Positions 3,714 to 54,453 of a DNA stretch of 64,000 nucleotides are shown here, one piece after another. Source of the DNA: Escherichia coli (GTDB lineage Bacteria > Pseudomonadota > Gammaproteobacteria > Enterobacterales > Enterobacteriaceae). Each line of letters opens with the position of its first letter. Position 1 is the stretch's first letter. The DNA lies in assembly GCF_046105845.1 (NCBI RefSeq), contig NZ_CP151004.1; one strand, 5' to 3'. A model generated the notes under the pieces. It was not told where the DNA came from, made no database searches, and saw only the letters and a program-made list of their open reading frames with translations. The translations under genes and the position numbers were made by a program.

Positions 3714-3967
3714 AAATAAATTAGCCTGATGGCCTGAACTACTGGGCCATTAGGTTATTGGGTTATGCTATTTATCATCCTTTTAATTGCGATAATGCAG
3801 GGTTAATTTACAGAATTAAACACTTTTTTATCTGCTGATTTTGTTTCAAATCACAATGTTATCTCAGAGATGACTCATAACTTAGGATTTCTATGAAAAT
3901 ATTGACGTAATTTTGCTTTTCTCTCGTTAGAATAGCGCGCACAAGGAACTGTGAAAAAGGAGTGGCA

Positions 3968-5298: not shown

Positions 5299-6486
5299 TC
5301 AACAAAGCGCGGGCTGCCCCCACGGTCTTGCACGAATTCCTTTTAACATCAGCACCCACGCAGCAATAATCACCAACGCTAAGATGATAAACAGCGAGGA
5401 AGGCGGCAGGTTGGTTAGCACTACGCCACTCACTAATGGGTTAATCGCGGCACCAAGCCAGCCTAAAGACTGGGCGGAAAAATAGCTGGCTTTCATTCCT
5501 GGCGGCGCAATATGGTCAATCAACATATACTCGCCCGGCGCATAAATGATTTCACCGACAGTAAATACCGCAGCTGACATACCCCACAATAGCAGGCTGT
5601 TGCCGGAAAAAATAAAACCGACCAGACCGATGACGAAACAGAGGGTGCCTGCTGTCATCAGCGTGCGGATGTTAGCCGGGTTAAGTCGCCGGCCCACGGA
5701 ATATTGCAACGTAACTACCATGGCAGCATTCACTGGAAGAACAACCGCGACCACCTTTTCGGCAAAATCCCCATCAGCAATCACCATCACATATTGTGAA
5801 ATGCATGAAGCAAATGCGCCGCTAACAAAAGAAGCCAGAAAGCCAGAGCAGGTAAACCACAACAGTGCTTTATCTTGTAATAAAACTTTCGGCGACCAGG
5901 CACTGGCTGTTTCCGTGGCGATGATTTTCTCGCTGCGCTTTACCCAAATTTGAATGAAAAGCATGGGAAACGCGGAACAGATAGCTGCCAGCCAAAAGGG
6001 CAGATTGATGCTCTGCATCACCAACAGCGTGCCGAGCGGCGGACCGATGGTCCAGCCAATGTTGAGCATGGTGTAGTTGATTGAGAAGATTTTCGTTTTG
6101 CTGGTGGACGAAAGATTGTCGGCAAACCAGGCTTTCAACACAGTAGCAAAAACGGAATAGGCGCAGTTAATGAGGGCAAAAAAGAGCACCACCAGCGTCA
6201 CGTTATTCACTAAAGGAATGGCAATAAAACCGCAGGCGAAGGCGGTAATTGCCAGTAACATATAGCGTTTCTTGTCGAACTTATCCGCCAGGATACCAAA
6301 ACCGAGGCTAAAAACGACGCCAATAGTGAGCGCAATTGTCATCGCATAACCGATTAGATCGACACTCAGGCTGTACTGGCGACTCAAGTAAATGGTCATA
6401 AACGGCAGCGTAGCGCCGCGTCCGATGGTTAATAACAACGACGAGGCAAGAAGGGCGCTGGTAGAGCGTCGTAGGGATAAGTTCAT
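5299..6486 (-). CDS. ydeE: MFS transporter (dipeptide/arabinose exporter family)
   Basis: 395-aa ORF, multi-TM MFS-like sequence from MNLSLRRSTSALLASSLLLTIG; matches YdeE. Confidence 0.92.
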   Translation of the reverse strand: MNLSLRRSTSALLASSLLLTIGRGATLPFMTIYLSRQYSLSVDLIGYAMTIALTIGVVFSLGFGILADKFDKKRYMLLAITAFACGFIAIPLVNNVTLVVLFFALINCAYSVFATVLKAWFADNLSSTSKTKIFSINYTMLNIGWTIGPPLGTLLVMQSINLPFWLAAICSAFPMLFIQIWVKRSEKIIATETASAWSPKVLLQDKALLWFTCSGFLASFVSGAFASCISQYVMVIADGDFAEKVVAVVLPVNAAMVVTLQYSVGRRLNPANIRTLMTAGTLCFVIGLVGFIFSGNSLLLWGMSAAVFTVGEIIYAPGEYMLIDHIAPPGMKASYFSAQSLGWLGAAINPLVSGVVLTNLPPSSLFIILALVIIAAWVLMLKGIRARPWGQPALC

Positions 6487-15395: not shown

Positions 15396-16586
15396 CTATT
15401 GCGTCTGTTCTTCGAGTGTCACTGGCCAGCGGCGAAAAATGATGATTGACCATATTAACGCGGCAAAAGCAGGCACCGCGCCCACATAACCAATCATCGA
15501 CATTGACCAGTGCAGACTGACCTGATTACCTACCAACGCGCCAGCGCCGATTCCAATATTAAATATCCCCGAGAATAGCGCCATCGCGACGTCGGTGGCA
15601 TCTGGTGCCAGCGCCAGCACTTTAACCTGCATACCAAGCCCGATGATCATCATCGCGATCCCCCAGAAAATACTTAGCACCCCGAGGTGTATTTCACTGT
15701 TCGCCGCAGGTAGCAGCAGTGCGAGGCACACCAGCAACAACGCAATCGCCGTACTCACCAACGCAGACGCATACTGATTACCCAGTTTCCCGAAAATCAC
15801 GCTGCCAATAATGCCCGCACCACCGAGTAATAACAGTAATGCCGTGGCAAAGTTGGCGCTGAATCCCGCAATGTTTTGCACAAAAGGCTCGATATAGCTG
15901 TATGCCGTGTAATGGGCGGTGACAACCACCACAGTTAACAAATAAATGCTCATTAATGCCGGGCGGCGGAACAATAGCGGGAGGCTTTTCAATGAACCGG
16001 AATGCTCACTGGGCAGCAAGGGAAGTAACTTAATCAGGCACAAAAGGGTAATAAACGCCCCGATACCAATCGCGAAGAAGGTCATTCGCCAGCCAAAATA
16101 CTGCCCCACAATGCGCCCGAGAGGTAAACCTAATACCATTGCCAGTGCTGTACCGGTGGCAATTAAACTCAACGCCTGCGCTCGCTTCCCGGCCGGAGCC
16201 ATACGGATCGCCAGAGACGCCGTAATCGACCAGAAAATCGCATGTGCAAAAGCCACACCAATGCGACTGATCACCAGAACGGTAAAACTCCACGACAAAA
16301 ACGACAGTACGTGACTGGCAATAAATACCACAAACAGGCAGATCAGTAATTTGCGCCGTTCAACCTGGCTGGTCATTAACATAAAAGGCAATGACATTAG
16401 CGCCACTACCCATGCATAAATCGTCAACATGATGCCGACCTGAGCGGTTTGCATGTGAAAACTTTGCGCAATGTCAGAGAGCAGGCCAACAGGGACAAAT
16501 TCGGTGGTGTTGAAGATGAAGGCGGCGACTGCCAGCGTAACGACCCGTAGCCACGCCACTTTGCGGGAAACAGTGTTTGTTGTCAT
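15396..16586 (-). CDS. sotB: MFS sugar efflux transporter
   Basis: 396 aa; matches SotB/YdeA. Confidence 0.92.
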
Positions 16587-45874: not shown

Positions 45875-48526
45875 ATGACAGCCTTTCGTGCCGCATTTAA
45901 GGCATATCGTATGCATCAGGTGTTACTACTGCCTCGCTTTGCACGGCTTACCATTGCCCTTGGCTTAGCAACTGCGGTATTTCCCGTTGACGCAGAGTAT
46001 TATTTTAATCCACGGTTTTTAAGCAATGATCTTGCTGAATCTGTCGATTTATCCGCCTTTACTAAGGGACGCGAGGCACCACCTGGTACATATCGGGTCG
46101 ACATTTATTTGAACGACGAATTTATGACTAGTCGGGATATTACTTTTATTGCAGATGATAATAACGCAGATCTCATCCCATGCCTGAGTACAGATCTTCT
46201 TGTCAGTCTTGGCATAAAAAAATCAGCGTTATTAGACAATAAAGAACATTCGGCAGAAAAACATGTGCCGGACAACAGCACATGCACACCACTTCAGGAT
46301 CGTTTGGCTGACGCATCATCTGAGTTTGATGTTGGTCAGCAACATCTGTCACTCTCCGTTCCGCAAATTTATGTTGGCAGAATGGCTCGCGGCTATGTTT
46401 CTCCGGATCTGTGGGAAGAAGGAATAAATGCTGGGCTACTAAACTATAGTTTTAATGGTAATTCTATTAATAATCATAGTAACCATAATGCAGGAAAATC
46501 CAACTATGCATATTTGAATTTACAGAGTGGCATCAACATTGGTAGTTGGCGACTGCGTGATAACTCAACGTGGAGTTATAACAGTGGGAGTAGCAATTCA
46601 TCTGACAGCAATAAATGGCAGCATATCAATACGTCGGCTGAACGTGACATTATTCCCTTACGCTCACGGTTAACGGTGGGTGATAGTTATACCGATGGCG
46701 ATATTTTTGATAGTGTGAACTTTCGTGGCCTCAAAATAAATTCAACAGAAGCGATGTTGCCCGATAGCCAACATGGTTTCGCTCCGGTGATTCATGGTAT
46801 TGCCCGTGGCACAGCACAAGTGAGTGTAAAACAGAATGGATACGATGTTTATCAGACTACTGTTCCACCCGGCCCTTTTACTATTGATGATATCAACTCT
46901 GCGGCCAATGGTGGTGATCTGCAAGTAACCATAAAAGAGGCAGACGGCAGTATTCAGACATTATATGTTCCTTATTCGTCTGTTCCGGTTCTCCAACGTG
47001 CTGGATATACGCGTTATGCGCTTGCCATGGGGGAATATCGTAGTGGAAATAACCTGCAAAGCTCCCCCAAGTTCATACAAGGTAGCTTGATGCATGGACT
47101 GGAAGGAAACTGGACACCTTATGGCGGAATGCAAATTGCAGAAGATTATCAGGCCTTCAACCTTGGTATTGGTAAAGATTTAGGACTTTTTGGTGCCTTT
47201 TCTTTCGATATCACGCAGGCCAATACGACACTTGCAGATGGCACCCGTCACAGCGGGCAATCGATTAAATCCGTCTACAGCAAATCCTTCTACCAGACGG
47301 GAACCAATATCCAGGTCGCAGGATATCGCTATTCTACGCAAGGTTTTTATAACTTATCCGACAGTGCCTACAGTCGAATGAGTGGTTACACCGTCAAGCC
47401 TCCTACCGGAGACAGCAATGAGCAGACACAATTTATTGATTATTTTAATCTGTTCTACAGTAAGCGTGGTCAGGAACAAATAAGCATCTCTCAGCAGCTT
47501 GGAAATTACGGTACGACATTTTTCAGTGCCAGTCGCCAAAGTTACTGGAACACGTCACGCAGCGACCAGCAAATATCATTTGGATTAAATGTGCCGTTTG
47601 GCGATATTACAACTTCGCTGAATTACAGCTATTCCAATAATATATGGCAAAACGATCGGGATCATTTACTTGCTTTTACGCTTAATGTTCCCTTCAGTCA
47701 TTGGATGCGTACAGACAGTCAGTCGGCATTTCGTAATTCAAACGCCAGTTACAGTATGTCAAACGATTTGAAAGGCGGCATGACCAATCTATCAGGGGTT
47801 TATGGCACTCTGCTGCCGGATAATAACCTGAATTATAGCGTTCAGGTAGGTAACACCCACGGAGGTAATACATCGTCTGCCACCAGTGGTTACAGTTCTC
47901 TTAATTATCGTGGAGCTTACGGTAATACTAATGTCGGTTACAGTCGGAGTGGGGACAGCAGCCAGATTTATTACGGAATGAGTGGTGGGATTATTGCTCA
48001 TGCTGATGGCATCACCTTTGGTCAGCCGCTGGGCGACACAATGGTTCTGGTTAAGGCTCCTGGCGCTGATAATGTCAAAATAGAGAACCAGACCGGAATT
48101 CATACCGACTGGCGTGGCTATGCCATATTACCATTTGCGACAGAATATAGAGAAAATCGTGTCGCTCTTAACGCGAATTCCCTTGCAGATAATGTTGAAC
48201 TGGATGAAACCGTGGTCACTGTCATCCCAACTCACGGTGCTATTGCCAGAGCAACATTTAATGCACAAATCGGCGGGAAAGTATTAATGACGTTGAAGTA
48301 CGGTAATAAGAGCGTTCCATTCGGTGCAATTGTCACTCACGGAGAGAATAAAAATGGCAGCATTGTCGCGGAAAACGGTCAGGTTTATCTGACTGGACTT
48401 CCACGGTCAGGGAAATTACAGGTTTCATGGGGCAATGATAAAAACTCAAACTGTATAGTCGATTACAAGCTTCCTGAAGTCACTCCTGGAACCTTACTGA
48501 ACCAGCAGACAGCAATCTGTCGCTAA
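45875..48526 (+). CDS. ydeT: Outer-membrane fimbrial usher (FimD/PapC family), full length
   Basis: 883-aa ORF; likely start at MHQVLLLPRFARLTIALGLATAVF (45911). Full length here, whereas K-12 ydeT is a truncated pseudogene (from memory). Confidence 0.85.
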   Translation: MTAFRAAFKAYRMHQVLLLPRFARLTIALGLATAVFPVDAEYYFNPRFLSNDLAESVDLSAFTKGREAPPGTYRVDIYLNDEFMTSRDITFIADDNNADLIPCLSTDLLVSLGIKKSALLDNKEHSAEKHVPDNSTCTPLQDRLADASSEFDVGQQHLSLSVPQIYVGRMARGYVSPDLWEEGINAGLLNYSFNGNSINNHSNHNAGKSNYAYLNLQSGINIGSWRLRDNSTWSYNSGSSNSSDSNKWQHINTSAERDIIPLRSRLTVGDSYTDGDIFDSVNFRGLKINSTEAMLPDSQHGFAPVIHGIARGTAQVSVKQNGYDVYQTTVPPGPFTIDDINSAANGGDLQVTIKEADGSIQTLYVPYSSVPVLQRAGYTRYALAMGEYRSGNNLQSSPKFIQGSLMHGLEGNWTPYGGMQIAEDYQAFNLGIGKDLGLFGAFSFDITQANTTLADGTRHSGQSIKSVYSKSFYQTGTNIQVAGYRYSTQGFYNLSDSAYSRMSGYTVKPPTGDSNEQTQFIDYFNLFYSKRGQEQISISQQLGNYGTTFFSASRQSYWNTSRSDQQISFGLNVPFGDITTSLNYSYSNNIWQNDRDHLLAFTLNVPFSHWMRTDSQSAFRNSNASYSMSNDLKGGMTNLSGVYGTLLPDNNLNYSVQVGNTHGGNTSSATSGYSSLNYRGAYGNTNVGYSRSGDSSQIYYGMSGGIIAHADGITFGQPLGDTMVLVKAPGADNVKIENQTGIHTDWRGYAILPFATEYRENRVALNANSLADNVELDETVVTVIPTHGAIARATFNAQIGGKVLMTLKYGNKSVPFGAIVTHGENKNGSIVAENGQVYLTGLPRSGKLQVSWGNDKNSNCIVDYKLPEVTPGTLLNQQTAICR

Positions 48527-49645: not shown

Positions 49646-50560
49646 ATGGGTAAAACAATAAGTATGAAGCTTCTGTTCGGTATTTATCTTCTATTAATGG
49701 CAGGCAAAGTTTTTGCCTTCAGTTGTAATGTCGATGGCGGGTCAAGTATTGGAGCAGGTACAACCTCTGTTTATGTTAATCTCGACCCTGTAATACAACC
49801 GGGCCAGAATCTGGTTGTAGACTTGTCTCAGCACATAAGTTGCTGGAATGATTACGGCGGCTGGTACGACACTGATCATATAAACCTGGTACAAGGCTCA
49901 GCTTTCGCAGGCTCTCTACAGTCATATAAAGGATCGCTGTACTGGAATAATGTGACCTACCCCTTCCCGTTGACGACAAATACTAATGTATTAGATATTG
50001 GTGATAAGACACCGATGCCATTACCGTTAAAACTCTATATTACCCCAGTCGGTGCGGCCGGTGGAGTTGTCATAAAAGCCGGGGAAGTTATTGCCCGTAT
50101 TCATATGTATAAAATTGCCACGTTAGGAAGCGGAAATCCGCGTAATTTTACGTGGAATATTATTTCAAATAACAGTGTTGTTATGCCAACAGGCGGCTGC
50201 ACCGTTGATAGTCGTAATGTCAACGTGAATCTCCCGGACTTTCCTGGAAGCGCAGAAATACCCCTTGGCGTATATTGCTCAAGTGAACAAAAGCTCTCAT
50301 TTTATCTTTCGGGTGCTACCACTGACAGTGCCAGACAAGTGTTTGCTAACACAGCACCAGATGCAACAAAAGCATCGGGAGTGGGTGTCTCTCTGATGCG
50401 TAATGGAAAAATACTGGCTACGGGAGAAAACGTCTCCCTGGGGACAGTAAATAAAAGCAAAGTACCTCTGGGTTTAAGCGCAACCTATGGACAAACAGGA
50501 AACAAGGTTGCAGCCGGAACCGTCCAGTCAGTCATTGGTGTCACTTTTATCTATGAATAA
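49646..50560 (+). CDS. ydeQ: Fimbrial tip adhesin (FimH-like two-domain)
   Basis: 304 aa with signal peptide; length matches YdeQ. Confidence 0.85.
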
Positions 50561-50632
50561 TTGTGATTTTGACATTGGTCTATGCGCTCCATTCACGAAA
50601 ATTGCGCGGATATTTATTTTGTGAAGGCTATT

Positions 50633-50650
50633 ATCCTACATCTGTAAGAA
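50633..50650 (+). promoter_or_regulatory. EvgA box (ATCCTACA-tc-TGTAAGAA) upstream of ydeP
   Basis: Matches the EvgA 18-bp inverted-repeat consensus TTCYTACA-N2-TGTARGAA with one mismatch; ydeP is a known EvgA-activated acid-resistance gene. Confidence 0.6.
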
Positions 50651-50892
50651 AATCCGCGCACAATTGAAGCCAGAGTCTTATTTTTTATATTGAAAAATAT
50701 GTTAATTTAAACACTATGAGAGATGATGCTTAATTTATCGTATTTAATCTTTTGTTTAACGATAATAGATTAAAATAGAAAGAGAGTAGTCCCCTACTCT
50801 TATATATCCATGTTGACGATAATCCCTTTGTATATACTGTGCATCATCGCTATTACAAATCCTAATAATTCATTTCCACACAGGATAAGCAG

Positions 50893-53172
50893 ATGAAGAA
50901 AAAAATTGAATCCTACCAGGGAGCTGCCGGTGGTTGGGGTGCTGTTAAATCCGTAGCGAATGCAGTACGTAAGCAGATGGATATACGCCAGGATGTTATT
51001 GCCATGTTTGACATGAATAAGCCAGAGGGCTTTGACTGTCCGGGTTGTGCATGGCCAGATCCTAAGCACAGTGCGTCATTCGACATTTGTGAAAACGGCG
51101 CAAAAGCAATCGCCTGGGAAGTCACGGATAAGCAGGTAAACGCCTCTTTCTTTGCTGAGAATACGGTTCAATCATTACTTACCTGGGGAGACCACGAGCT
51201 CGAGGCTGCGGGGCGTCTCACCCAGCCTTTGAAATATGATGCCGTCAGCGACTGTTACAAGCCATTAAGCTGGCAACAAGCTTTCGACGAAATTGGCGAA
51301 CGCCTTCAAAGCTATAGTGATCCCAATCAGGTTGAATTCTATACTTCGGGCCGCACTTCCAATGAAGCTGCCTTTCTTTATCAGCTTTTTGCCCGTGAAT
51401 ACGGGAGCAATAACTTCCCCGACTGCTCCAACATGTGCCATGAACCGACCAGTGTGGGTTTGGCAGCGAGTATCGGTGTAGGTAAAGGGACCGTGTTGCT
51501 GGAAGACTTTGAGAAATGCGATTTAGTCATTTGCATTGGGCATAACCCTGGTACAAACCACCCTCGCATGTTGACTTCGTTGCGCGCTTTAGTGAAACGG
51601 GGAGCGAAAATGATCGCCATCAATCCTCTACAGGAACGTGGCCTGGAGCGATTTACCGCACCGCAAAACCCGTTTGAAATGCTGACGAACTCTGAGACTC
51701 AGTTGGCCAGTGCCTACTATAACGTGCGCATTGGTGGTGATATGGCGTTGCTCAAGGGGATGATGCGCCTGTTAATTGAGCGCGATGATGCTGCAAGCGC
51801 CGCAGGTCGGCCCTCATTGCTGGATGACGAATTTATTCAAACGCATACCGTCGGCTTTGACGAGCTACGCCGTGACGTGCTCAATTCCGAGTGGAAAGAT
51901 ATCGAACGTATTTCTGGATTAAGTCAGACTCAAATCGCCGAACTGGCTGATGCATATGCCGCTGCCGAACGCACCATTATCTGTTACGGAATGGGGATCA
52001 CTCAGCACGAACATGGTACCCAGAATGTACAGCAACTGGTCAATCTGCTGTTGATGAAAGGTAACATTGGCAAGCCTGGTGCGGGTATCTGCCCACTACG
52101 AGGTCACTCTAATGTACAGGGCGACCGAACCGTCGGTATCACCGAGAAACCGTCTGCAGAGTTTCTGGCTCGCCTGGGTGAGCGCTATGGTTTCACCCCA
52201 CCTCATGCACCTGGACATGCTGCAATTGCCAGCATGCAAGCAATATGTACGGGGCAGGCTCGAGCATTGATCTGCATGGGGGGCAACTTTGCACTGGCAA
52301 TGCCAGATCGGGAAGCGAGCGCTGTACCGTTAACGCAATTAGATTTGGCGGTACACGTAGCCACTAAGCTTAACCGCTCTCATCTGCTGACCGCACGGCA
52401 TAGCTATATTCTGCCGGTTCTTGGGCGTAGCGAGATTGACATGCAAAAAAGCGGTGCGCAGGCGGTAACCGTTGAGGATTCAATGTCGATGATTCATGCC
52501 TCGCGTGGCGTGTTAAAACCCGCCGGTGTAATGCTGAAATCAGAGTGTGCAGTGGTCGCGGGAATCGCGCAGGCAGCACTACCCCAGAGCGTGGTAGCCT
52601 GGGAGTATCTGGTGGAAGATTATGATCGCATTCGCAATGACATTGAAGCTGTGCTGCCAGAGTTCGCCGACTATAACCAGCGCATCCGTCATCCCGGTGG
52701 TTTTCACCTGATAAATGCAGCTGCTGAAAGGCGCTGGATGACGCCGTCAGGTAAGGCTAATTTCATTACCAGTAAAGGGCTGTTAGAAGATCCCTCTTCA
52801 GCGTTTAACAGTAAGCTAGTCATGGCGACAGTACGCAGTCACGATCAGTACAACACGACGATTTATGGTATGGATGATCGCTATCGAGGGGTATTCGGTC
52901 AACGAGATGTGGTCTTTATGAGTGCTAAACAAGCTAAAATTTGCCGTGTAAAAAACGGCGAAAGAGTTAATCTTATTGCGCTTACGCCAGACGGTAAGCG
53001 AAGCTCACGCCGCATGGATAGATTAAAAGTGGTCATTTACCCTATGGCTGACCGCTCACTGGTGACCTATTTTCCAGAATCGAATCACATGCTAACACTT
53101 GATAACCACGATCCATTGAGTGGCATTCCTGGCTATAAAAGTATTCCGGTTGAATTAGAACCATCAAATTAA
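50893..53172 (+). CDS. ydeP: Molybdopterin-dependent oxidoreductase (formate dehydrogenase-like), acid-resistance protein
   Basis: 759 aa; matches YdeP. Confidence 0.93.
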
Positions 53173-53185
53173 TTCGCCTCCTCAT

Positions 53186-53216
53186 TTCTTCTGCTGTCAT
53201 CCGCACAGCAGAAGAA
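53186..53216 (+). terminator. 12-bp perfect stem hairpin (ttcttctgctgt / acagcagaagaa) immediately after the ydeP stop
   Basis: Inverted repeat read from sequence; lacks a U-tract. Confidence 0.45.
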
Positions 53217-53290
53217 TTCCTCATTGACCATTGTCGCGCAATTTACTCACATGTGCTAAATTAAACTGCTCGTTATAAGATATATACCTC

Positions 53291-53308
53291 CGCCTACAGC
53301 TGTAAGAA
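53291..53308 (+). promoter_or_regulatory. EvgA box (CGCCTACA-gc-TGTAAGAA) upstream of safA-ydeO
   Basis: Second copy of the CCTACA-N2-TGTAAGAA motif; safA-ydeO is a known direct EvgA target. Confidence 0.55.
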
Positions 53309-53419
53309 ACTCCGCTCAGTACTGAAGCGCCAGTCCTATTTCCTCTATTCTCCAGCCTGTTATATTAAGCATACTGATTAACGATGCTTAACGTCATTCG
53401 TTTAATAAACATATTTGAA

Positions 53420-53617
53420 ATGCATGCGACCATAGTGAAAAATAAAATCACGCAAAGAGACAACTATAAAGGGATCATGTCTGTAATTGTGGTTGTATTA
53501 TTACTGACCCTTACATTGATAGCCATTTTTTCGGCAATTGATCAGCTGGGTATTTCAGAAATGGGTCGCATTGCAAGGGATCTTACACATTTCATTATCA
53601 ATAGTTTGCAAGACTGA
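53420..53617 (+). CDS. safA: Small membrane connector protein SafA (links EvgS/EvgA to PhoQ/PhoP)
   Basis: ORF 53384..53617; conserved start MHATIVKNKITQRDNYKGIMSVIVVVLLLTLT at 53420 (65 aa). Confidence 0.85.
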   Translation: MHATIVKNKITQRDNYKGIMSVIVVVLLLTLTLIAIFSAIDQLGISEMGRIARDLTHFIINSLQD

Positions 53618-53691: not shown

Positions 53692-54453
53692 ATGTCGCTC
53701 GTTTGTTCTGTTATATTTATTCATCATGCCTTCAACGCTAACATTTTAGATAAAGATTACGCCTTCTCTGACGGCGAGATCCTGATGGTAGATAACGCTG
53801 TTCGTACGCATTTTGAACCTTATGAGCGGCATTTCAAAGAAATCGGATTTAATGAAAATACCATTAAAAAATATCTACAATGCACTAACATCCAGACAGT
53901 GACGGTGCCTGTTCCTGCGAAGTTTTTACGTGCTTCAAATGTACCGACTGGATTGCTTAATGAAATGATTGCTTATCTCAACTCGGAAGAACGCAATCAT
54001 CATAATTTTTCAGAACTTTTGCTTTTTTCTTGCCTGTCTATTTTTGCCGCATGCAAAGGTTTCATTACACTATTAACTAACGGTGTGCTATCCGTTTCCG
54101 GGAAAGTGAGAAATATTGTCAACATGAAGCTGGCGCACCCATGGAAGCTGAAAGATATTTGTGACTGCCTGTACATCAGTGAAAGCCTGCTCAAGAAAAA
54201 ACTAAAGCAAGAGCAAACGACATTCTCACAGATTCTTTTAGATGCCAGAATGCAGCACGCAAAAAATTTGATACGCGTAGAAGGTTCTGTTAATAAAATT
54301 GCCGAACAATGTGGTTATGCCAGTACATCTTATTTTATTTATGCGTTCCGCAAACATTTCGGCAACAGTCCGAAGAGAGTTTCTAAGGAGTACCGTTGTC
54401 AAAGGCACACGGGAATAAATACGGGCAACACGATGAATGCTTTAGCTATTTGA
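53692..54453 (+). CDS. ydeO: AraC-family acid-resistance regulator
   Basis: 253 aa with C-terminal AraC HTH; matches YdeO. Confidence 0.92.
   Translation: MSLVCSVIFIHHAFNANILDKDYAFSDGEILMVDNAVRTHFEPYERHFKEIGFNENTIKKYLQCTNIQTVTVPVPAKFLRASNVPTGLLNEMIAYLNSEERNHHNFSELLLFSCLSIFAACKGFITLLTNGVLSVSGKVRNIVNMKLAHPWKLKDICDCLYISESLLKKKLKQEQTTFSQILLDARMQHAKNLIRVEGSVNKIAEQCGYASTSYFIYAFRKHFGNSPKRVSKEYRCQRHTGINTGNTMNALAI

Follow-up and report, generated by a model that had tools for sequence, protein, structure and literature searches.

The ydeP gene and the safA-ydeO pair follow one another downstream of the fimbrial gene ydeQ in the window, i.e., the whole stretch of 64,000 nucleotides of Escherichia coli DNA that was analysed. 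The coordinates of ydeQ, ydeP and ydeO were taken from the list of open reading frames together with RefSeq, and those of safA from the sequence and RefSeq, with gene identities following the RefSeq annotation of the orthologous K-12 region:

49646-50560, + strand: ydeQ, fimbrial protein gene upstream of ydeP
50893-53172, + strand: ydeP coding sequence, 759 aa
53186-53216, + strand: perfect 12-bp hairpin with a 7-nt loop, directly after the ydeP stop codon, T run absent
53420-53617, + strand: safA coding sequence, 65 aa
53692-54453, + strand: ydeO coding sequence

EvgA boxes upstream of ydeP and safA

The motif CCTACA-N2-TGTAAGAA, which the sequence-only reading had placed twice at this locus, about 240 bp upstream of ydeP and about 110 bp upstream of safA, does occur in exactly two exact copies in the window, both on the + strand and at distances of 243 and 112 nt from the respective start codons. 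No further match was found in the 64 kb even when up to two mismatches were allowed, a tolerance at which 0.43 matches are expected; for an exact match to the 14 specified bases, our own arithmetic gives an expectation of approximately 5e-4. The pair is far beyond chance. The only matches to the 18-bp consensus TTCYTACA-N2-TGTARGAA in the window likewise lie at these two places (with one mismatch at ydeP and two at safA); in both boxes, the left half is off consensus at its outer two positions (AT and CG in place of TT):

50635-50650, + strand: exact motif copy CCTACATCTGTAAGAA, ahead of the ydeP ATG (50893)
53293-53308, + strand: exact motif copy CCTACAGCTGTAAGAA, ahead of the safA ATG (53420)
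50633-50650, + strand: EvgA box of the ydeP promoter, ATCCTACATCTGTAAGAA, a consensus match centred at about -74.5
53291-53308, + strand: EvgA box of the safA-ydeO promoter, CGCCTACAGCTGTAAGAA, a consensus match

An 18-bp inverted repeat was reportedly described as the EvgA box by Masuda and Church in 2003, and Itou et al. are said to have found in 2009 that EvgA binds at ydeP and at b1500/safA. The box, or EvgA binding, at ydeP and b1500/safA is cited second-hand in the later literature (PMC3720670, PMC4283999, PMC8174306), and published papers state that the activation of ydeP by EvgA is direct and that EvgA binds inverted repeats at yfdX and frc. A full-text literature search for the box sequence or for the anatomy of the ydeP promoter returned nothing usable. 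Within 20 kb of the K-12 evgAS region, the same 18-bp consensus was matched four times vs 0.16 expected, and all four matches lie upstream of emrK/evgA, frc and yfdX. The boxes at ydeP and safA-ydeO are also upstream of, and co-oriented with, genes known to be activated by EvgA. A 72-nt segment that contains the ydeP box is conserved across E. coli (5314 of 5426 genomes); the DNA upstream of YdeP relatives in Edwardsiella, Yersinia and others is unrelated and the EvgA box is absent from it. The consensus matches, the RefSeq gene identities and the papers on EvgA control bear out the proposal that both motifs are EvgA boxes ahead of the two genes that EvgA targets at this locus, and, judged by their sequence, they are canonical, already known EvgA binding sites.

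A promoter module common to ydeP and safA

Ungapped alignment of the two promoters from the exact motif onward gives 69 identical positions of 99, with a score of 39 vs a maximum of 15 in 500 shuffles, and the score still amounts to 25 vs 15 when the box is left out. The module extends from the box, across the extended -10 element, to about +18:

50635-50733, + strand: ydeP copy of the 99-nt module (ungapped alignment with safA; kept in a divergent lineage)
53293-53391, + strand: safA copy of the module, with an extended -10 TGtTATATT at 53358-53366 (alignment)
50700-50708, + strand: predicted extended -10 TGtTAATTT of the ydeP promoter, read from the sequence
50716, + strand: probable start of ydeP transcription, at -178 relative to the ATG (K-12 numbering)
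50655-50672, + strand: putative weak secondary EvgA site, CGCGCACAATTGAAGCCA, found by matrix scan 22 bp downstream of the primary box

Downstream of the box, ydeP and safA are identical at 54 of 85 positions, as against 18-35 of 85 in all other pairs of EvgA promoters. The paralogy is also present in the divergent lineage L003 (61/99), orthologues being identical at 81-88 of 99 positions, and 56 columns, some of them within the right arm of the inverted repeat described below, are invariant across all six module sequences. Since this match is specific to the ydeP/safA pair, the two promoters look like duplicated (paralogous) cassettes, and we infer duplication as the origin of their similarity.

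The start site of ydeP was placed by means of a leader probe spanning -178 to +10, described in PMC11210196, whose start was mapped via the K-12 alignment. The element TGtTAATTT ends 7 nt before this leader start and TGtTATATT of safA lies at the same offset; by this alignment, the safA transcript is predicted to start at about 53373-53374. The extended -10 at 50700-50708 was judged more likely than a promoter-like TTGAAG-16-TATATT (50664-50691), since it agrees with the published leader start as well as with the safA alignment. Small leader open reading frames, namely a 16-codon frame at 50722 (ATG ATG CTT...) and an in-frame ATG at 53384, were also considered; in L003 and in the H105 type they are truncated or frameshifted, and K-12 has lost the ATG, so that they are not coding.

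The putative secondary site attains a matrix score of +1.95 at ydeP, above the 99th percentile of the window, and, the primary box aside, the +22 offset has the best mean score of 140 offsets. At safA the corresponding site is near the 95th percentile, and at frc, yfdX and emrK it is not elevated. By analogy with BvgA, the right arm of the inverted repeat may be half of a low-affinity secondary EvgA site located 22 bp downstream of the primary box.

The inverted repeat flanking the ydeP box

The imperfect inverted repeat said to bracket the ydeP box is present, its arms aattgcgcggat (50600-50611) and atccgcgcacaatt (50652-50665) pairing as 8 bp, a 2-nt bulge and 4 bp. In an ungapped form, TGCGCGGATATT at 50603-50614 and AAAATCCGCGCA at 50649-50660 are complementary at 11 of 12 positions with 34 nt between the arms, and the right arm shares 2 nt with the end of the EvgA box:

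50600-50611, no strand assigned: left arm, AATTGCGCGGAT, at about -116 to -105 relative to the probable start of ydeP transcription
50652-50665, no strand assigned: right arm, ATCCGCGCACAATT, in the spacer between the box and the core promoter

In 300 dinucleotide shuffles of the 332-nt ydeQ-ydeP spacer, with loops of up to 60 nt, an inverted repeat at least as good was obtained in 30 shuffles when pairs were unweighted and in 12 when G-C pairs were weighted (4-10%), and 5 of 200 shuffles fold as well as the single-stranded DNA of 50595-50670 (z = -2.48). The repeat is thus only marginally beyond chance. Its right arm, ATCCGCGCACAATT, aligns with CTCCGCTCAGTACT at safA and appears better explained by the spacer common to the two promoters, and its left arm is without a counterpart at safA. 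A left-arm 10-mer, AAATTGCGCG, recurs inverted at 53234-53243 upstream of safA, as a common upstream motif might; this stretch is unconserved in K-12 and L003 and is therefore attributed to chance. A reading of the segment as a miniature mobile element, with GAA flanking its terminal inverted repeats, was likewise rejected, because it is single-copy (median of 1 place per genome).

The natural variation of the arms was followed in about 110 sequences from E. coli lineages, to which the power to detect covariation is limited since representatives of other Escherichia species were not recovered. The arms are invariant in most E. coli. The changes that do occur are one-sided and pairing is not kept by compensation: six independent changes, four in the left arm (G50604A of the E400634 type, C50605T of the L073 type, C50607T and T50611A) and two in the right arm (A50652T and C50654T), are accompanied by zero replacements of one Watson-Crick pair by another. 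In L003, a double change (T50602A with C50661T) adds one outer A-T pair, and the arms are still complementary despite a 12-nt insertion between them. In one strain, BKQ37E, an IS5-like element has inserted into the stretch that separates the left arm from the box.

One role that could be envisaged for the repeat is that of a hairpin in the 3'-UTR of ydeQ read-through transcripts, where it would stabilise the 3' end or contribute to a terminator that shields ydeP from transcription of ydeTSRQ. The repeat begins 40 nt past the ydeQ stop codon and a T run is present downstream at 50680-50685; if transcribed, the arms are predicted to pair with a probability of 0.75-1.0 in 13 of 15 sequences (0.9-1.0 in most strains), the 12-nt loop insertion of L003 being tolerated. 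However, this T run lies about 18 nt past the stem, and a scan of the + strand of 50480-50950 for intrinsic terminators (a G+C-rich stem, a 3-8 nt loop and an immediate T run) found no terminator-like site. Furthermore, the RNA fold of the spacer (50561-50720) is no better than that of shuffles (z = -0.74), most of the arm pairing is lost in E400634, compensatory changes are missing, and a search for known RNA families in Rfam gave no match to the region at E <= 1. A hairpin with such a function is improbable.

The arms could alternatively serve as half-sites for some other, bridging protein that competes with EvgA, or helps it, at the intervening box. Consistent with this, the left arm stands out as better conserved than its surroundings in two divergent lineages, with 11 of 12 positions kept vs about 56-71% identity in the immediate flanks, and the 12-nt insertion of L003 is close to one helical turn. 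Nevertheless, no known motif was recognised in the arms, which in typical E. coli vary at least as much as the intervening sequence (about 6 variable sites in 18 nt vs about 8 in 40 nt), and the spacing between the arms is variable. In addition, the cassette shared with safA accounts for the right arm, and the 10-mer resembling the left arm upstream of safA is not conserved in K-12 or L003. We regard such half-sites as improbable. Considered together, a functional repeat of either kind, read-through hairpin or protein half-sites, that gates the access of EvgA to the ydeP box is also an unlikely prospect; it would constitute a control input to ydeP that is absent from the otherwise duplicated safA promoter.

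The sequence-only reading had instead proposed that an alternative DNA or RNA structure, formed by intrastrand pairing of the arms into a cruciform or an RNA hairpin, occludes or presents the EvgA box and so modulates ydeP induction. For a cruciform, a spacer of 34-52 nt and a stem of 9-12 bp are very unfavourable for extrusion; the arms are 34-40 nt apart here and 52 nt apart in L003. As regards RNA, the whole repeat ends at 50665, upstream of the probable ydeP start at approximately 50716 that was taken from the probe design, and it is therefore absent from ydeP mRNA. In spite of the complementarity of the arms over 9-12 nt, its retention in L003, the constancy of the arms in most E. coli and the single-strand DNA fold, this proposal is very improbable, given that EvgA binds duplex DNA, that comparable repeats arise in shuffled sequence, that the six arm changes are uncompensated, that E400634 has lost most of the predicted pairing and that safA has the same box and promoter without such a repeat.

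Proposed promoter cassettes and their likeness to known systems

It is likely that the two EvgA boxes head duplicated EvgA-dependent promoter cassettes and that the larger repeat is not a working structure. Each box would serve one EvgA-dependent sigma-70 promoter, that of ydeP or that of safA-ydeO: a phosphorylated EvgA dimer would bind the 18-bp palindrome in duplex DNA some 74 bp ahead of the start and activate a promoter with an extended -10 and a poor -35. Both promoters would be duplicates of a single ~100-bp cassette that extends from the box as far as about +18; the right arm would belong to the conserved spacer of this cassette, and the left arm would be a short G+C-rich stretch outside it that is complementary by accident. 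The finding is one of already known biology accompanied by an incidental repeat.

The EvgA boxes at ydeP and safA-ydeO are part of the textbook acid-resistance cascade, and thus confirming them adds nothing new. For users of PydeP as a reporter of EvgS/EvgA and for modellers of the regulon, two results are of modest value: the duplicate promoters of ~100 bp with identical spacing between box and -10, and the candidate secondary EvgA site that follows the primary box at a distance of 22 bp. By virtue of the duplication, one cassette can also be compared naturally with and without a complementary arm upstream. A functional repeat would account for differences between the responses of ydeP and safA, but the evidence argues against this.

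Within the EvgS/EvgA acid-resistance regulon, the present boxes are alike in consensus, genes, orientation and promoter-proximal position; the motif is also found at emrK/evgA, frc and yfdX, from which the boxes described here do not differ in themselves. Regulatory inverted repeats that act as cruciforms or hairpins likewise have two complementary G+C-rich arms around a protein site, but their spacers are of a few nt and the hairpins are located within the regulated transcript, whereas here the arms are 34-52 nt apart, the stem is short, imperfect and without covariation, and the repeat is outside the transcript. EvgA is the E. coli relative of BvgA, which in Bordetella activates promoters such as that of fhaB from a primary inverted-repeat site and from secondary dimers that follow it in ~22-bp steps to the -35 region. 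Unlike at those promoters with their secondary dimers, the putative secondary site here scores high only at ydeP and is borderline at safA; the likeness to the BvgA promoters lies in the far-upstream primary palindrome (about -74.5), in the poor -35 and in the weak palindromic match that follows the primary box of ydeP at an offset of exactly 22 bp.

EvgA boxes and the probable start of ydeP

The window is E. coli DNA. Its ydeQ-ydeP spacer spans 332 nt (50561-50892), shares 100% identity with strain CFSAN061763 and was found at a coverage of at least 80% in 5207 of 5426 complete genomes. In the orthologous K-12 region, RefSeq annotation gives the gene order ydeT-ydeS-ydeR-ydeQ-ydeP-safA-ydeO. 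The genes concerned lie in the window as follows:

49646-50560, + strand, ydeQ
50893-53172, + strand, ydeP
53420-53617, + strand, safA
53692-54453, + strand, ydeO

The fimbrial usher gene ydeT (45875-48526) is an intact 883-codon ORF here and is annotated as a truncated pseudogene in K-12. Directly 3' of the ydeP stop lies a perfect 12-bp hairpin (53186-53216) with the 7-nt loop CATCCGC; in L003, a locus from a divergent E. coli-like lineage, the same hairpin (~3795-3825) has the loop ACGGATG, which is close to the reverse complement and looks like the outcome of a loop inversion within the arms.

The sequence-only reading had placed a motif, CCTACA-N2-TGTAAGAA, upstream of both ydeP and safA and taken it for paired EvgA boxes. 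Exact matches are indeed present at 50635-50650 and 53293-53308, at 243 nt and 112 nt from the respective start codons, and the window holds no further copy even at two mismatches. The consensus reportedly published by Masuda and Church in 2003 is an 18-bp palindrome, TTCYTACA-N2-TGTARGAA, which occurs in the window at 50633-50650 with one mismatch, at 53291-53308 with two, and nowhere else. As an independent check, the K-12 evgAS region (20 kb) contains four consensus matches vs 0.16 expected, all of them upstream of known EvgA targets: emrK/evgA, frc and yfdX (two). EvgA activates ydeP transcription (PMC11210196), and three other papers, which cite EvgA binding itself at second hand, report direct EvgA regulation of ydeP and emrKY, after Itou 2009 (PMC8174306), EvgA binding to inverted repeats at yfdX/frc (PMC3720670) and an EvgA site at every direct target (PMC4283999). 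The consensus matches, the recurrence at other K-12 targets and these papers support the assignment of both motifs to the already known EvgA boxes. A natural variant on a metagenome contig carries A50640C in the ydeP box core, i.e., CCTACC instead of CCTACA.

Mapped via the K-12 alignment, position -178 from the ydeP ATG, where a published leader probe begins (PMC11210196), corresponds to 50716. We infer that this probe begins at the true transcription start; the gadA and gadB probes of the same study begin at their known starts. An extended -10, TGtTAATTT (50700-50708), lies seven nt upstream of 50716. Counted from 50716, the box centre falls near -74.5, and the inverted repeat that brackets the box (50600-50665) would lie entirely upstream of the transcript.

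A promoter cassette common to ydeP and safA

From the box onward to about +18, the ydeP (50635-50733) and safA (53293-53391) promoters align without gaps and agree at 69 of 99 positions. This alignment scores 39, and none of 500 dinucleotide shuffles scored above 15; the 81 nt downstream of the box alone reach 25 vs 15. The safA sequence TGtTATATT (53358-53366) aligns exactly with the ydeP extended -10. Downstream of the box the two promoters have 54/85 positions in common, compared with 18-35/85 for all other pairs among ydeP, safA, frc, yfdX, emrK and evgA; on these sequences, similarity beyond the box is specific to the ydeP/safA pair. In L003, whose YdeP is 96% identical, the paralogous promoters agree at 61/99 positions and the orthologues at 81-88/99, and 56 columns are invariant in all six cassette sequences (CCTAC...TGTAAGAAA.T.CGC.CA....TGAAG....AGTC.TATTT...). 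Because their identity is far above that of any other EvgA promoter pair, the ydeP and safA promoters look like old duplicates of one ~100-bp cassette. Of the two arms of the inverted repeat, the right one, ATCCGCGCA, lies inside the cassette, with CTCCGCTCA as its safA counterpart; the left one lies outside, and no safA equivalent of it was found.

A weak TC..ATTT element occupies nt 26-33 past the box at ydeP, safA, emrK, frc and the proximal yfdX box, and at the same five promoters we read a -10-like hexamer whose last base lies 57-59 nt beyond the box. These like offsets suggest that the box-to-promoter distance may be fixed across the EvgA regulon. The sequence CTCTCTGATT is common to frc and yfdX at the same offset.

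L055 (K-12 evgAS region), 5514-5531, 15507-15524 and 16501-16518, sites compared
Window, 50676-50683, TC..ATTT set

Outside E. coli, YdeP has its closest relatives in Edwardsiella (L004-L007; ~85% amino-acid identity), and no representative of another Escherichia species was recovered. The upstream DNA in Edwardsiella (L004-L007) and Yersinia rohdei (L006) is unrelated and without an EvgA box, which suggests that ydeP is patchily distributed or was transferred horizontally, its promoter being gained in E. coli. In some pathogenic strains with an intact promoter, ydeP is an annotated pseudogene with an internal stop or truncation (O157:H7 SS TX 313-1, L058; 2013C-4991, L060). A ydeP locus 100% identical to that of E. 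coli on a metagenome-assembled genome contig labelled Candidatus Nanosynbacter (L002, L041) is probably binning contamination.

The inverted repeat around the ydeP box

Both arms lie where the sequence-only reading had put them, at 50600-50611 and 50652-50665. In ungapped form, TGCGCGGATATT (50603-50614) is complementary to AAAATCCGCGCA (50649-50660) at 11 of 12 positions, and 34 nt separate the two arms. Shuffling the spacer produced an equal or better repeat in 30/300 cases without weighting and in 12/300 with G-C weighting; for single-strand DNA folding, 50595-50670 gave z = -2.48, and for RNA folding, 50561-50720 gave z = -0.74. Among 13 typical E. coli of several lineages, the only arm change is T50611A in one strain; across typical E. 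coli, the arms vary no less than the stretch that separates them. Of 5426 genomes, 5314 carry the 72-nt segment, mostly with 2-3 differences, which in the 13-strain sample affect the loop and, at the box, its N2 and flanking positions. A metagenome scan anchored outside the arms recovered 19 related haplotypes of the segment. Across these haplotypes, the fetched strains and L003, six arm changes were tallied (G50604A, C50605T, C50607T, T50611A, A50652T and C50654T), all one-sided, and no Watson-Crick swap compensates any of them. The sole double change, T50602A with C50661T in L003, converts an outer-end mismatch into an A-T pair. In BKQ37E (L066 1520-1620), an IS5-like element, placed exactly between the left arm and the ydeP box and immediately 5' of the latter, removes the left arm; in Z503 (L053), ydeQ and the EvgA-dependent promoter have given way entirely to an IS1, and ydeP retains only 89 nt of its upstream sequence.

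The repeat could only be transcribed as the ydeQ 3' untranslated region. A hairpin there, which has neither the look of an intrinsic terminator nor an Rfam family match, and a protein bridging the arms are both improbable, if slightly less so than the proposal that a cruciform or RNA hairpin occludes or presents the EvgA box. For a selected structure speak a left arm better kept than its flanks in two divergent lineages and a predicted pairing, if transcribed, that is high in most strains and tolerates the 12-nt loop insertion of L003; against it stand the marginal shuffle statistics, the six uncompensated changes and the loss of predicted pairing in E400634. A cruciform requires near-perfect arms and a short spacer, and would be very unfavourable here because a 9-12 bp stem is separated by 34-52 nt. 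In addition, a response regulator reads its site on duplex DNA, which no RNA hairpin can cover, and the repeat is absent from a ydeP transcript starting at 50716; structural gating is therefore very unlikely. The observation itself is confirmed; of its interpretation, the EvgA part is supported and already known, and the structural part is not supported.

A candidate second site and known systems

The BvgA dimers of Bordetella follow one another at ~22-bp steps, and by this analogy a weak EvgA site was sought downstream of the primary box at a distance of 22 bp, using a matrix from 12 half-sites at 140 offsets. Offset +22 had the best mean score of the 140, the box itself aside. The ydeP candidate, CGCGCACAATTGAAGCCA (50655-50672), scored +1.95, which exceeds the window's 99th percentile, and that of safA lies near the 95th; at frc, yfdX and emrK the +22 score is not elevated. 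This is suggestive only; the right arm may belong to a weak putative EvgA site. Neither the candidate site nor the cassette duplication was found described in the accessible literature, and together they would be at most a minor descriptive extension. The inverted repeat lacks the short spacer, the compensatory changes and, with the probable start at 50716, the place within the regulated transcript that define structure-forming regulatory repeats. The ydeP and safA boxes fit the known EvgA-box family on all features tested here.
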